From the NCBI GenBank assembly GCA_963666365.2, contig CAXXNF010000002.1, forward strand, positions 128,001 to 192,000: a DNA stretch of 64,000 nucleotides, in the 5' to 3' direction. The DNA comes from Syntrophales bacterium. GTDB taxonomy: Bacteria > Desulfobacterota > Syntrophia > Syntrophales > UBA2210. Made by a program: the position numbers and the translations under genes. Positions 18,152-26,810 of this stretch are shown here, in pieces (within the stretch, counting starts at the first letter, position 1; each line of letters begins with the position of its first letter). The notes under the pieces are model-generated. The model searched no databases and was not told the origin of the DNA. It saw only the letters and a list, made by a program, of their open reading frames with translations.

Positions 18152-21100
18152 GTGACGTTCCCATTGTTTTCTCACAGTTTGACTCAGGACGCGACAGTGA
18201 TGAAGAACCCGAAACCGGGAAATGCTCCTGCTGCTTTGACAGCGCTGTCTTTTGCCTGTGACGGGGGACTGGGAGAGGATTTCCATGATATACTGAAGGA
18301 ACAATGCGCCACTATCCGGAAGGGGATGCCGGGCGATTCCCGATGGCGAGAATGCCGGGAAGTCACCGTGCCCCGAGATGCTGACGGCACACATTGCCTG
18401 CCGGGGATGAAATCACCGTTACGGAACGAACAATTGCCCATCCCCGATTCGGAAAAGATCGGCGTCCTGCCGTCAAAAGCTCATCCTAATGAGCCGTTAA
18501 ACAGGATGGACAGGGGCATGGTGCTCAATGCGGTGCGTGCGGCACTTCATGCCACCCGGCCGGTAAAAAATACCGCAGCGTCTTTTTCAGAGGATAGACC
18601 CTTCGCTCTGCTGCGTACGTTGATGAGGGGGAGCGGCGATGACGAAAGCGCCGCCGGCGCCCTGGCGGATAGAACGGGAAGTGCGCAGCCCTCAGTTTCT
18701 GCGTCTGCCGTCGAGACCGCTGCGCCGGATAGGACCCCTGGCGCCGATCATGATCGGGCCGAGGCGGTGATGGGCGCTCTGCTCACCGGTCTTCCGGGGA
18801 ACTGCCTCCTGTCAGGCAGGCTGGCGGCGGCCACGGAGATCGTCAGTGACGCGGGAGGCACGCCTCCCCCGAGCTTAGCCCTGGGGGATAGAATGGGAAG
18901 TGCGCAGTCCTCTGCTTCTGTACCTGTCGTCGAGACCGCTGCGCCGGATAGGGCCGTTGGCAACAGTAAAGGTCAGGCCGAGGCGGCGATAGGCGCTCTG
19001 CTCACCGGCCTTCTGGGGAACTACCTCCTGTCGGGCAGGGCGGCGGCAACGGAGACCGTCAGTGACGGGGGAGGCGCGCCTCCCCCGAGCCTTGCGCTGG
19101 CGGATAGAACAGGAAGTGCGCAGCCCTCAGTTTCTGCGCCTTCCGTCGAGACCTCTGCGCCGGATAGGGCCGTTGGCAACAGTAAAGGTCAGGCCGAGAT
19201 GGCGATAGGCGCTCTACTCACCGGCCTTCCGAGGAACTACCTCCTGTCGGTCGGGGCGGCGGCAACGGAGACCGTCAGTGACGGGGGAGGCGCGCCTCCC
19301 CCGAGCCTTGCGCTGGCGGATAGAACGGGAAGTGCGCAGCCCTCAGTTTCTGCGCCTTCCGTTGAGACCTCTGCGCCGGATAGGGCCGTTGGCAACAGTA
19401 AAGGTCAGGCCGAGATGGCGATAGGCGCTCTGCTCACCGGCCTTCTGGGGAACTACCTCCTGTCGGGCAGGGCGGCGGCAACGGAGACCGTCAGTGACGG
19501 GGAAGGCGCGCCTCCCCCGAGCCTTGCGCTGGCGGATAGAGCGGGAAGTGCGCAGCCCTCAGTTTCTGCGCCTTCCGTTGAGACCTCTGCGCCGGATAGG
19601 GCCGTTGGCAACAGTAAAGGTCAGGCCGAGGCGGCGATAGGCGCTCTGCTCACCGGCCTTCTGGGGAACTACCTCCTGTCGGGCAGGGCGGCGGCAACGG
19701 AGACCGTCAGTGACGGGGGAGGCGCGCCTCCCCCGAGCCTTGCGCTGGCGGATAGAACAGGAAATGCGCAGCCTTTAGTTTCTGCGCCTTCCGTCGAGAC
19801 CTCTGCGCCGGATAGGGCCGTTGGCAACAGTAAAGGTCAGGCCGAGGCGGCGAGAGGCGCTCTGCTTACCGGTCTTGGCGTCATGGCGCCTGTTTCGAAA
19901 GAATTGCCCTTAGAACTCTCTCGAATACTGGAGATTGTTGGACGTACTCTGTCTCCTGAAGCTGTGTCTGCTGACCCGCAAGGGGCCGTTTCAGGGGCAA
20001 TGAAAGAAGCAGTTTTTCACTACTTCAAGGGGCAAGGGGCCGGTTTCGGTAATAATCAGGCGGCAATGCAATTCGGCGGCGGGACAATGCAGGAATCAGT
20101 ATATGCTCCGGCGATGGGAAACATCATGAAAGAAGGACCTTTTACGAAACCGGGAACAACGAACCCGGGCGGTAAGGTCTTTCTCGGTGCAGACAGCGGA
20201 GTGAGTGTGCAGGATGAAAGGAAAGGCATGCTGCAGGCTGTCGTTGATGAAGCGTCGCGCAGGCAGGAAAGGGATGGTGCGATGCCGAAGGAGGGAAGCA
20301 CCCGCCTGCGTTCAACTGGTGTGCCCGCAGCCGGTTCAAATGAGAATGAACAGATACTGACGCGTTACCGCAATGAACAGACGTCACCGGCCGGGAGCGA
20401 TCCCGGGAGGCTGTCCTTGGGTGCGTCCTGGGAAAGGACGAGAGTCTACAGAGTGTCCTCGGACGCCTTGCCAGGGCAACAGGCTGAAGCAACCGAATCC
20501 GTGCGGATGAAGGGCGTCCCGGGATATGGCGCGATCGTTTCAAAGGAGAAGGGTGTTGCGATGCATGCCCGTCAAGACGTGAAAAAGAAGAGCCCGGGCA
20601 AGGGAGGTCTGAGCGATACACCGCAGTCTCCCCCTACATTCATTTCCGGAGAGGTGGGCAAAGAGGCGCATAAAACAGATCGAAATGGGCAATCATTGCT
20701 GCGCGATGTGAGGAAGTTCCGGCTCATCGATCGCAATGCCTCTGAAAGGCCTGCACAAGGCAATTCACCCGACGTGGAAAAGGAAGCGCTGCGGCAGCAG
20801 CCGGAAAGCGGGAGGCAGGTTTTACCTTCCCTTTCAGGGGGAGAAGAACCGGCCGGCATGAAACGCTTCGATGTTGAGTTGCAGGAGCGTGCTCTGTCTC
20901 AGAAAGAGGCAGTGTCGACCAATCAGTCACAGCCCACAGTCCGTCATGCCCAGGCAGTTGACTCCTTCCCCGGTACAGAAATGAGGGCGCCCGCTGACGA
21001 CAGACCCGTAAAAACGGAAATGCTGGTTGAACGGGTGCTTGCCGCTGTGTCAAATCCGGCCAAAGGAGGAGTGAATCGAGTAAAAATCGCGCTCAATCCC

Positions 21101-21463
21101 CCCAATATGGGGACTATGGACATGGAGGTCATCGTACGCGATAAAATGGTGCGTGTGGTATTTCGGGTCGAGGGTACAGAGGTGAGCCGATTTCTCAATG
21201 CCAATGTTGAACAGTTGAGAAATTCGCTTGCCGGTCAGGGATTGACGGTCGACTCGATACTCGTCAGCGGACAGGGAGAACAGGCGAGCGGTGAACGGTA
21301 CGGATCCGCCCAGGGCGGACAATTCTTTCAGCATGAAGGCAACAGAAGCGGCAATCATGCCGGTGAAAAATATGGCGGTTCCATGACGGCGCAAAAGGAT
21401 AACCCGCCTGAAGCGAAAAACGCCACAGACCATCTCCACGGAATGGTGAGTCTCTTCGTGTGA
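18152..21463 (+). CDS. fliK: Very long hook-length control protein FliK with internal tandem repeats
   Basis: C-terminal T3S4 domain (KIALNPPNMGTMDMEV...LRNSLAGQGLTVDSILV); immediately upstream of flgD-flgE. Start is GTG 18152 or ATG 18200. Confidence 0.9.
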   Translation: MTFPLFSHSLTQDATVMKNPKPGNAPAALTALSFACDGGLGEDFHDILKEQCATIRKGMPGDSRWRECREVTVPRDADGTHCLPGMKSPLRNEQLPIPDSEKIGVLPSKAHPNEPLNRMDRGMVLNAVRAALHATRPVKNTAASFSEDRPFALLRTLMRGSGDDESAAGALADRTGSAQPSVSASAVETAAPDRTPGADHDRAEAVMGALLTGLPGNCLLSGRLAAATEIVSDAGGTPPPSLALGDRMGSAQSSASVPVVETAAPDRAVGNSKGQAEAAIGALLTGLLGNYLLSGRAAATETVSDGGGAPPPSLALADRTGSAQPSVSAPSVETSAPDRAVGNSKGQAEMAIGALLTGLPRNYLLSVGAAATETVSDGGGAPPPSLALADRTGSAQPSVSAPSVETSAPDRAVGNSKGQAEMAIGALLTGLLGNYLLSGRAAATETVSDGEGAPPPSLALADRAGSAQPSVSAPSVETSAPDRAVGNSKGQAEAAIGALLTGLLGNYLLSGRAAATETVSDGGGAPPPSLALADRTGNAQPLVSAPSVETSAPDRAVGNSKGQAEAARGALLTGLGVMAPVSKELPLELSRILEIVGRTLSPEAVSADPQGAVSGAMKEAVFHYFKGQGAGFGNNQAAMQFGGGTMQESVYAPAMGNIMKEGPFTKPGTTNPGGKVFLGADSGVSVQDERKGMLQAVVDEASRRQERDGAMPKEGSTRLRSTGVPAAGSNENEQILTRYRNEQTSPAGSDPGRLSLGASWERTRVYRVSSDALPGQQAEATESVRMKGVPGYGAIVSKEKGVAMHARQDVKKKSPGKGGLSDTPQSPPTFISGEVGKEAHKTDRNGQSLLRDVRKFRLIDRNASERPAQGNSPDVEKEALRQQPESGRQVLPSLSGGEEPAGMKRFDVELQERALSQKEAVSTNQSQPTVRHAQAVDSFPGTEMRAPADDRPVKTEMLVERVLAAVSNPAKGGVNRVKIALNPPNMGTMDMEVIVRDKMVRVVFRVEGTEVSRFLNANVEQLRNSLAGQGLTVDSILVSGQGEQASGERYGSAQGGQFFQHEGNRSGNHAGEKYGGSMTAQKDNPPEAKNATDHLHGMVSLFV
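18659..19876 (+). repeat. In-frame tandem repeat with a 216-bp (72-aa) unit, 5 full copies plus 1 partial
   Basis: Units start at 18659 (219 bp), 18878, 19094, 19310, 19526 and 19742 (partial). Typical unit: ALADRTGSAQPSVSAPSVETSAPDRAVGNSKGQAExAIGALLTGLLGNYLLSGRAAATETVSDGGGAPPPSL. Confidence 0.97.
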
Positions 21464-24095: not shown

Positions 24096-24857
24096 ATGGA
24101 TCTTGCCACTATTGCGGGTATTTTAAGCGGTTTCGGACTTGTCATAGTTGCCATGAGTATGGGGGGAGGACTCTCGTGGTTTATTAATATTCCTTCGGCA
24201 CTTATCGTGATGGGCGGGACGTTGGGGGCGGTCCTTATCAACTACCCCATAACGGATATGCTGGGCGTCATGAAAGTGGCGAAGCAGGTGTTCTTTCAAA
24301 AGGAAATAAGTGCAAACTGGGCGATAGAAACGCTCATCGACATGTCAAAAACCGCCCGGCGTGAAGGAATACTGGCACTGGAAAAGAGGGTCGATGAGAT
24401 AAAAGATCCCTTCTTTTCCAAGGGAATCGGTCTGATGATTGACGGCATCGAACCGGGAACACTCTCGAAGATTCTGCATACCGAGCTGGAGTTTATCGAG
24501 GAGCGGCACCGGCTGGGCGCCGAAATATTTACCACCATGGGAAACTTCGCCCCCGCCATGGGGATGATGGGCACGCTGATCGGCCTGGTCAAGATGCTTA
24601 TGCAGATGGATGATCCCAGTTCAATCGGACCGGCCATGGCCGTGGCACTGATCACCACCTTCTATGGCGTTATCCTCGCCAACATGGTGTTCCTGCCCAT
24701 TGCGGGAAAATTAAAAACACGGAGCGCGCAGGAGCTTCTGGTAAAGCAGATGATGATCAATGGGATTCTCTCGGTTCAGTCGGGAGACAATCCCCGTGTG
24801 TTGGAGCAGAAGCTGCACTCTTTCATCTCTCCGGGGAAACGGAAGTCGGTCCTGTAA
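24096..24857 (+). CDS. motA: Stator A subunit (MotA/PomA-type)
   Basis: MDLATIAG, ARREGILALE, APAMGMMGTLIGL, GPAMAVALITTFYG. The start is ATG 24096, not 23901. Confidence 0.95.
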   Translation: MDLATIAGILSGFGLVIVAMSMGGGLSWFINIPSALIVMGGTLGAVLINYPITDMLGVMKVAKQVFFQKEISANWAIETLIDMSKTARREGILALEKRVDEIKDPFFSKGIGLMIDGIEPGTLSKILHTELEFIEERHRLGAEIFTTMGNFAPAMGMMGTLIGLVKMLMQMDDPSSIGPAMAVALITTFYGVILANMVFLPIAGKLKTRSAQELLVKQMMINGILSVQSGDNPRVLEQKLHSFISPGKRKSVL

Positions 24858-24859
24858 CC

Positions 24860-25642
24860 ATGGAGCAAGAGCAGATCAGAAGACGAAAAGGCGCCCCTTC
24901 AGGGGCTACATGGGAGACGATATATTGTTCCCTTGCACTCATTCTGGTCGCGTTTTTTGCCATGCTCGTATCCTATTCGAGCATAGATGAGGGAAAGACG
25001 ACGAATTTTAAGCGTGGATTCGGCGGTGATCAGCCCAAAGGGATAGAGGGTCTTATGTCCTACGGTACGGGTGGGTTCAAGACGGATAAGGGGAAAGGCA
25101 GCGCGATTCTTAAGCCTTCAAAGGATATTATCAAAGATGAACATTCGAAGGCGATGCTTACGCTCAAGATGTTGAAAAAATATCTGCGCGATACGGGGCT
25201 GGATAATGTCATTCGAGTGGAACAGACACAGGGCGGCTTTAAGGCCGTGTTTGAAGACGATGTGCTCTTCCCCTCGGGCGTGGCGGAGATTTCCCCGGCG
25301 CTCTACCCTGTGCTGGATCGATTGACTCAGGTTGCCAGGGAGAGCGTCTTCGATGTGTGGATCGAGGGTCATACGGATACGATTCCGATAGCAACGCCGC
25401 GCTTTCCCTCGAACTGGGAATTGTCCACCGACAGGGCCGTCAGCGTTCTCCGGTATTTTATGGAGCGGGGCGGTGTGCCGGCGAAGCGGCTTTTCGCTGT
25501 GGGATTCGGGCAGTATCGGCCGGTGGCGTCGAATGATACTGCCGAGGGGCGAGGGAAAAATCGCCGTGTCGAATGTCGATTCGAAAAGGCGGTTGCTCAC
25601 GATTCGGGAGAAAAAGGGGGGACCGATGGGAAGACGCCGTAG
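24860..25642 (+). CDS. motB: MotB-like stator B subunit lacking the conserved TM aspartate
   Basis: Single TM WETIYCSLALILVAFF plus OmpA-like domain (EGHTD, SNWELSTDRA, KNRRVE). Confidence 0.85.
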   Translation: MEQEQIRRRKGAPSGATWETIYCSLALILVAFFAMLVSYSSIDEGKTTNFKRGFGGDQPKGIEGLMSYGTGGFKTDKGKGSAILKPSKDIIKDEHSKAMLTLKMLKKYLRDTGLDNVIRVEQTQGGFKAVFEDDVLFPSGVAEISPALYPVLDRLTQVARESVFDVWIEGHTDTIPIATPRFPSNWELSTDRAVSVLRYFMERGGVPAKRLFAVGFGQYRPVASNDTAEGRGKNRRVECRFEKAVAHDSGEKGGTDGKTP

Positions 25643-26306
25643 TGAAGAGGCGGATCAGGGCGGTAAGTGGCTGACCACTTTCAACGATCTGGTAACACTT
25701 CTGCTCACCTTTTTTGTGCTTACCCTGTCGCTTTCGAAACTGGATACGGCAAAGGTGAAGGAGATGTCGCGCTCTGTGAACTCTGCAATGGGAAGGCTCG
25801 AGGAAGGAACGAAGGTCGGCATACAGGTGTTTGAACCGTTTGTCCATCCGATCCGACACTACGGTTTGCCCCTGGAAAAAAAGAAAAAAGTCCTGGCAAA
25901 GAAGATTGCAGAACAGGGAACCATGGATGCGGAGGTACTCGAGAAAGGCGTCAGAGTTACAATGGATGAAAAAGTGCTGTTCGCCACGGGTGAAGCGGAA
26001 ATTCAATCACGGTTTTTCGATGATTTGCGTGTGCTTTGCCTGGAGTTTCGTGAGGTGGAAGGGGAGATTTGCGTGGAGGGGCATACTGATGATGTTCCTA
26101 TCAATACCGCTCGATTTCCTTCCAACTGGGAGCTTTCATCTGCCCGAGCGGCCAGCGTGGTCAGATTCATGGTGGAGCAGGGCATTGCGCCGGAGCGGCT
26201 GTCCGTTGCGGGCTATGGTGATTTCCGTCCACGTCGCGAGGGCGGTGAACGCGCCGACAGGGCCGCAAACAGACGAGTTGAAATCGTGGTGAAGGTAAAG
26301 GAATGA
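25626..26306 (+). CDS. motB: Stator B subunit with the canonical Asp
   Basis: WLTTFNDLVTLLLTFFVL, EGHTDD, SNWELSSARA, NRRVEI; start at ATG 25626. Confidence 0.93.
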   Translation: MGRRRSEEADQGGKWLTTFNDLVTLLLTFFVLTLSLSKLDTAKVKEMSRSVNSAMGRLEEGTKVGIQVFEPFVHPIRHYGLPLEKKKKVLAKKIAEQGTMDAEVLEKGVRVTMDEKVLFATGEAEIQSRFFDDLRVLCLEFREVEGEICVEGHTDDVPINTARFPSNWELSSARAASVVRFMVEQGIAPERLSVAGYGDFRPRREGGERADRAANRRVEIVVKVKE

Positions 26307-26318
26307 CAAGGAGGTACG

Positions 26319-26810
26319 ATGGCTGCGGAAGAAAAAAAAGAAAGTAATGAAGCTTCGGAGAAAAAGGGAAAATCCGGTTTTGGCATCAAAGTGATCATTG
26401 GCGCCCTTGTACTTATTCTGGCTGCCGGAGGTGCATTTTTCGGATGGAAAATGTACACAAGCCGAATGGTTGCACTCGAGAAAAAACAGGAAGAGCCGGC
26501 CGTCAAAATCGGGACGCTTTGGTCGCTCGGCCCCATGATTGTCAATCTTCTCGATAATGAAGGCGAGAGATACCTGAAGGTGAACATTGAGATAGAGCTG
26601 TCAAGTCCCGAATGTGCAGCGGAACTCGACCTTCTGAGACCGAAGATCATGGACGGCATTCTGGACCTCCTTTCTTCGAAATCATACAAGGAGATTGTAG
26701 GGTTCGAGGGGAAACAGCATCTGAGAGATGAAATTTCGATGCGCATAAACAATTATCTCAGCAAAGGGCGCATTGTGCATGTGTATTTTACCGAGTTTGT
26801 CGTGCAGTAG
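26319..26810 (+). CDS. fliL: Flagellar basal body-associated protein FliL
   Basis: N-terminal TM, IVNL, EGKQHLRDEI, VYFTEFVVQ. Confidence 0.95.
   Translation: MAAEEKKESNEASEKKGKSGFGIKVIIGALVLILAAGGAFFGWKMYTSRMVALEKKQEEPAVKIGTLWSLGPMIVNLLDNEGERYLKVNIEIELSSPECAAELDLLRPKIMDGILDLLSSKSYKEIVGFEGKQHLRDEISMRINNYLSKGRIVHVYFTEFVVQ

Follow-up and report, generated by a model that had tools for sequence, protein, structure and literature searches.

The window, a 64,000-nucleotide stretch of a Syntrophales genome, carries on its + strand a flagellar gene cluster that, from Pfam matches and open reading frames, comprises a FliK-like gene, flgD, flgE, motA, two motB genes, fliL, fliM, fliN, fliO, fliP, fliQ and fliR. 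An earlier note, drawn from the letters of the DNA, had described a stator locus with a single MotA gene and a pair of MotB genes, the first motB beginning 2 bp after motA and overlapping the second, and direct reading of the three open reading frames bears out both the gene content and the spacing. The features considered here are the following:

24096-24857, + strand: motA, 253 aa, PomA-like stator A subunit (Pfam MotA_ExbB, 105.4 bits), with its TAA stop codon at 24855-24857
24860-25642, + strand: motB1, 260 aa, a full-length MotB paralogue without the ion-binding Asp
24905-24976, + strand: MotB1 membrane helix, residues 16-39 in the AlphaFold2 model, motif W-E/Q-x-I-Y-C-S-L-x-L-I-L-V-A-F-F-A-M-L-V-S-Y-S
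24914-24916, + strand: codon GAG of MotB1 Glu19, the residue after the conserved Trp, read directly
24929-24931, + strand: codon TCC of MotB1 Ser24, at the position of the canonical Asp, read directly
25265-25564, + strand: OmpA-like peptidoglycan-binding domain of MotB1, residues 136-235 (Pfam PF00691, 68.3 bits, model positions 1-98 of 98)
25614-25621, + strand: purine-rich (G-rich) Shine-Dalgarno-like stretch AAGGGGGG, ahead of the motB2 start and within the end of motB1, read directly
25626-26306, + strand: motB2, 226 aa, a canonical MotB with Asp21 (Pfam OmpA, 57 bits; MotB_plug, 53.1 bits)
25686-25688, + strand: codon GAT of MotB2 Asp21, read directly
26319-26810, + strand: fliL, the next operon gene (Pfam FliL, 83.2 bits)

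The start of motB1 at 24860 lies two bases past the motA stop, which ends at 24857, and motB1 and motB2 overlap by 17 bases. A simple scan of the + strand of motA-motB1-motB2 found no convincing internal promoter or terminator. Judged by this arrangement, the three genes are a tightly coupled operon inside the flagellar cluster, and motB1 is in all appearance co-transcribed and translationally coupled with the PomA-like motA and the canonical motB2. Elsewhere in the cluster, the gene for the FliK-like hook-length protein (18152-21463; 1103 aa, with a Flg_hook domain at 968-1045) contains a repeat array at 18662-19876, made of 5.6 tandem copies of a 216-base (72-residue) unit with 92% match, which would lengthen the presumed ruler region.

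MotB1 has much of what is expected of a MotB/PomB subunit. Its gene is placed directly downstream of motA within a flagellar cluster, and its product ends in a C-terminal OmpA-like domain and retains the cytoplasmic basic tail, a plug-like segment and the linker. The full-length match to PF00691 upholds the statement of the earlier note that the rest of the protein, including the peptidoglycan-binding domain, is intact. The periplasmic domains of MotB1 and MotB2 share 42% identity. The plug-like segment is in register with that of ordinary MotBs in the alignment, and its match to the MotB_plug model is weak (22.3 bits by hmmscan, with a cut-off of 24, and 25.1 bits in the genome search). The AlphaFold2 model of MotB1 (mean pLDDT 76.4) places helices at residues 16-39 and 48-54, the second a short one, followed by a disordered linker and, at 118-243, an OmpA-like domain predicted with confidence. 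The nearest solved fold to this last domain is the periplasmic domain of Bacillus subtilis MotS (9ljl; TM-score 0.85 on the target), and the periplasmic domains of PomB and MotB match it as well. The structures closest to MotB1 also include PDB 3khn, the periplasmic domain of the 'putative MotB like protein DVU_2228' of Desulfovibrio vulgaris (sequence E value 2.6e-19; rank 9 by fold).

The ion-binding Asp is missing. The membrane segments of MotB1 and MotB2 align without gaps in MAFFT, with Ser24 of MotB1 falling on Asp21 of MotB2; alignment and direct reading thus agree with the earlier note on the gap-free correspondence, on the TCC codon for Ser24 and on the Glu that follows the Trp (Glu19, GAG). 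Since the Asp is a defining feature of the group, its absence sets MotB1 apart from ordinary MotB members, and MotB1 is best described as a variant stator B subunit.

The difference between the two MotBs extends beyond this one residue. At a consensus of at least 60%, ten alignment columns separate the first MotB of such loci (B1) from the second (B2). The membrane helix accounts for six of them (-3, -2, -1, +3, +4 and +7, counted from the Asp position), and the remaining four, all periplasmic, are conservative exchanges (V/I, I/V, L/V and A/P). Where canonical MotBs have T, D and T at -3, 0 and +3, B1 has I, then S, A or G, and then L. In MotB1 itself the residues are I21, S24 and L27, which correspond to T21, D24 and S27 of Vibrio PomB. 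According to the text on this region in PMC10374538, the sodium ion at site 1 is coordinated by PomB T21 and D24, and S27, which lies just above D24, is believed to make the site easier for solvent to reach. Because the changed residues occupy these same three positions, MotB1 would have lost not a single residue but the whole polar stripe on one face of the helix, and the face that lines the ion path is, as read from the alignment, now apolar.

The closest solved chain to MotA is Vibrio PomA (8brd/8bri; 224.8 bits), and MotA T160, T187, T188 and P153 align to PomA T158, T185, T186 and P151 and are invariant in 26 MotAs from loci with the motA-motB-motB arrangement (hereafter triads). The three threonines of the PomA selectivity site (T158, T185 and T186; their role is treated in the corresponding passage of PMC10374538) are therefore all present, as T160, T187 and T188, and the stator unit is probably sodium-coupled.

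No flagellar stator locus other than this one was found in the genome. A search of the 4.0-Mb assembly gave two MotB_plug matches in total, both at motB1/motB2, and three MotA_ExbB genes, of which the two besides motA each head an ExbB-ExbD-TonB set (loci L003 and L004, on contig 1 of genome G000). The genome accordingly has two Ton systems. With a single stator locus, MotB1 would have to act alongside the organism's only MotA and its only Asp-bearing MotB.

The Asp-less helix is widespread. A database search with MotB1 returned 3534 proteins at E values of at most 0.001. Among the best 120, which were inspected, the Asp position is occupied by Ser in 110 and by Ala in nine, and by Asp in none of the 119 with a helix, the remaining sequence being cut at its N-terminus; the motif W-E/Q-x-I-Y-C-S-L-x-L-I-L-V-A-x-F-A-M-L-V-S-Y-S is found in the same 119. 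The labels shown for homologues of MotB1 are confined to 'OmpA family protein', 'chemotaxis protein MotB', 'flagellar motor protein MotB' and 'hypothetical protein'. When 1.84 billion representatives of clusters at 50% identity were searched and the best 150 matches sorted by helix, 83 had Asp, 44 had a good helix match but no Asp (S 31, A 6, G 4, N 1, P 1, T 1) and 23 had no clear helix match. Two database proteins, P0131 (473 aa) and P0134 (432 aa), combine in one chain an OmpA-like domain, an Asp-bearing MotB helix and a second OmpA-like domain. They have no helix before the first OmpA-like domain, a topology that would be odd for a real fusion, and they could have arisen by read-through from MotB1 into MotB2 or by the merging of gene calls.

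Mean pairwise identities over a clade of 16 genomes are closely similar for the two MotBs: 0.42 over the full length, 0.48 over the OmpA domain and 0.75 over the membrane helix for MotB1, and 0.43, 0.47 and 0.81, respectively, for MotB2 (full-length MotA, 0.68). By this measure B1 and B2 evolve at equal rates, and MotB1 is, to judge from its conservation, kept by selection. FliL served as a control in the same genomes; its full-length identity is 0.47, and its single-pass, lipid-exposed membrane helix reaches 0.35. Of the 23 positions of the B1 helix, 20 show one and the same residue in 11 or more of the 16 genomes. Conservation on all faces fits a helix enclosed by a ring of protein, unlike an ordinary membrane anchor.

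The gene neighbourhood is conserved as well. MotB1, taken as a score of at least 237 bits against the B1 profile, was found in 11 of 25 genomes of the window's own family, the window's genome included, and in each of the 11 an Asp-bearing MotB2 lies directly behind it; the other 14 genomes gave OmpA-type matches only and no flagellar MotB. Two further triads were found in other families of the same order. Another locus of this order (L104, in genome G036) has a more distant MotA (135 bits) and a single MotB-like gene whose Asp-bearing helix is of a different type, and represents a separate stator lineage. Another 400 genomes of the phylum (Thermodesulfobacteriota) were sampled and the 29 best loci inspected, of which 13 have two tandem MotB genes and 16 have one. 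A profile search of genome contigs with the B1 alignment, one of its two search patterns lying in the OmpA domain, yielded 80 loci, most of them ordinary motA-motB pairs and only four of them triads. At the Asp position, the B1 sequences of 28 triads carry S (15), A (eight), G (three), N (one) or D (one), while D is found in all 28 B2 sequences and in all 68 single MotBs. With one further triad, L149, which has D in both MotBs, the tally becomes 29 triads, B1 being without Asp in 27 and B2 having Asp in all 29; because similarity to MotB1 was the basis on which these loci were collected, the triad counts do not describe a random sample, and all the triads come from the one phylum to which the search was confined. 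B1 was never seen without B2 in the genomes searched. The check that the earlier note had proposed, namely whether the Asp-less segment is conserved across motA-motB-motB neighbourhoods, therefore came out in its favour: the family is large and an Asp-bearing MotB2 always follows. Strain-specific decay, with close orthologues retaining the Asp, which the earlier note had named as fatal to its reading, is excluded by the Ser or Ala found in 119 of the best 120 homologues.

In a quick maximum-likelihood tree of 123 MotBs, the 28 B1 sequences included fall on one side of a branch with a support of 71, and the B1 subclades mirror those of B2, as fits an old duplication followed by long co-divergence. 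When L149 is added, B1 requires two changes and the Asp/non-Asp state requires four on the best tree. At least two changes of the Asp state are robust, because L121 (Asp) and L122 (Asn), which belong to the same family, are sisters with 98% support. The MotAs of triads are likewise separated by a branch from those of pairs, with a support of only 44, so that at these values (MotA 44, B1 71) tree support for a single origin of the triad is weak. L121 (genome G306) and L149 (G423) keep the Asp in both MotBs, and L122 (G430), with its Asn, resembles an early step in losing the Asp. The loci appear to form a series, from those where both MotBs have the Asp (Aquifex, L121 and L149) through Asn to Ser, Ala or Gly in a remodelled helix.

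Of the readings that the earlier note had offered, we consider the most likely, at a probability of roughly 0.45, to be a mixed A5-B1-B2 stator that has a single ion site and in which MotB1 stands beside MotB2. MotB1 would be the second axle subunit, next to MotB2 inside the MotA pentamer; the resulting unit would hold a single ion-binding Asp, contributed by MotB2, and MotB1 would anchor and plug the unit and carry no ion. We infer both the position of MotB1 inside the MotA ring and its pairing with MotB2. The repeated loss of the Asp is easier to explain in such a unit, because a mixed dimer could already have done without the second Asp. A duplicate able to work only when paired with itself would, on the contrary, be dead once its Asp was lost and should decay. 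Instead of decay, the Asp has been lost more than once, strong conservation has followed, and B1 has not been met without B2, and it is for this reason that the mixed unit is favoured. The columns that separate B1 from B2 included no charge-complementary ones that would force a mixed dimer. A complex prediction for four copies of MotA 1-220 with MotB2 8-62 and, as the partner, MotB1 11-70 scored 0.01 against a mark of 0.32, with four of the five ring subunits and no controls; as a poor stand-in for the A5B2 assembly, it speaks neither for binding nor against it.

In current models of 5:2 rotary motors, two Asp sites alternate every 36 degrees. The account of the turnstile model in PMC9389320 indicates that a permanently neutral site could lock the unit, so that a one-site unit would need a changed mechanism. 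That the flagella of these bacteria are driven by a naturally asymmetric 5:1:1 stator, MotA5-MotB1-MotB2, in which a single ion-binding site replaces the alternating pair is, in this full form, a rather doubtful proposition. If it were true, such a stator might need only half the ions for each turn of the MotA ring, which would suit energy-limited syntrophs and sulfate reducers, and the second Asp of current rotary models would not be mechanistically required.

Alternatively, MotB1 may form A5-B1-B1 units of its own, which would serve as a non-conducting brake, idler or placeholder at the rotor while A5-B2-B2 units do the work. This is the main rival to the mixed stator and a serious one, even if we consider it somewhat unlikely. 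Since B1 differs from B2 almost only at the ion-path face, nothing visible would block homodimers, and the all-round conservation of the B1 helix fits these units as well as it fits the mixed dimer. Nor would there be any conflict with published two-site models, which, from what is set out in PMC9389320, do not obviously allow a one-site unit. On the other side, inert units produced from a tightly coupled operon would consume the only MotA and occupy rotor sites, and at least two independent losses of the Asp, with B1 never without B2, are more easily understood through a role as partner, an argument that is not decisive.

A role for MotB1 outside the MotA ring appears improbable. It would then be a membrane-anchored, peptidoglycan-binding accessory, a stator-positioning scaffold with a role like that of the periplasmic stator-ring proteins, and the intact OmpA-like domain, the weak MotB_plug score and the dispensability of the Asp would all be in keeping with this. 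The helix itself argues otherwise, with an identity of 0.75 on all faces as compared with 0.35 for the FliL helix, and so do the retention of the MotB-wide pattern W...LL..FF...S.S together with the in-register plug-like segment and the existence of some triads with a fully canonical, Asp-bearing B1 helix (L149).

The earlier note had also raised the possibility that the carboxylate is relocated to Glu19, through which MotB1 would still conduct ions. The residue after the Trp is indeed acidic in 96 of 119 close homologues (Glu in 92 and Asp in four), but it is Gln in the other 23, and in the 28 triads the commonest residues there are Q (nine), E (eight) and V (four); in more distant triads it is Q, E or V, among others. 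As the ion path has also lost its flanking polar residues (now I21 and L27), this reading is disfavoured and we regard it as very improbable. That MotB1 is a decaying duplicate, or Ser24 a sequencing error, can be given next to no credence, as the frame is intact, 119 of the best 120 homologues share Ser or Ala, B1 evolves at the rate of B2 and Asp-less helices recur among the best cluster representatives, and no support for either was found in these data.

An Asp-less MotB1 beside a canonical MotB2 may be a natural test of whether a motor unit needs two ion sites, and the family is large, accounting for 44 of the best 150 representatives of clusters at 50% identity. Should the mixed unit exist and rotate, a single site would suffice, and its step size, ion cost and torque could be set against those of an ordinary stator unit. 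If MotB1 forms inert units instead, flagella would have an inbuilt brake or idler such as has not yet been described for them. In the literature searched, from which much subscription literature falls outside, no description of an Asp-less MotB in a stator operon was found, and a term search of a 2025 paper on MotAB evolution (PMC12505986) returned no mention of aspartate or of two MotBs in the text covered.

The locus resembles those of the canonical MotA5MotB2 and PomA5PomB2 stators (8bri/8brd, 6ysf and 6ysl) in the position of the operon by fliL and fliM, in its PomA-like MotA and in the MotB layout of MotB1, and MotB2 is fully canonical. It differs from them in having two different B genes per A gene and in that MotB1 is without equivalents of PomB T21 and S27. 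The AglR-AglQ-AglS gliding motor of Myxococcus likewise has one A-type gene and two different B-type genes, and an AglR5-AglQ-AglS unit with a mixed axle is predicted by modelling, as outlined in PMC11761067. This motor is, however, of the TolQR type and not flagellar, and unlike MotB1, AglQ and AglS alike are described as retaining the membrane Asp in the relevant section of PMC9389320, where the choice between mixed and like dimers is stated to be unknown. The same operon layout, a single motA with a pair of motB genes, is found in Aquifex aeolicus (motA-motB1-motB2; Takekawa et al. 2015, PMC4525482). According to the portion of that report on the two MotBs, their N-terminal and membrane regions are 97% identical, their periplasmic parts differ and each works in chimeric stators. 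Near-identical, Asp-bearing membrane segments of this kind are absent here, as the helices of B1 and B2 diverge on the face that lines the ion path. The present locus would thus be the reverse of the Aquifex one as it is described there, with periplasmic domains that are alike and a B1 membrane helix that has parted with its ion path.
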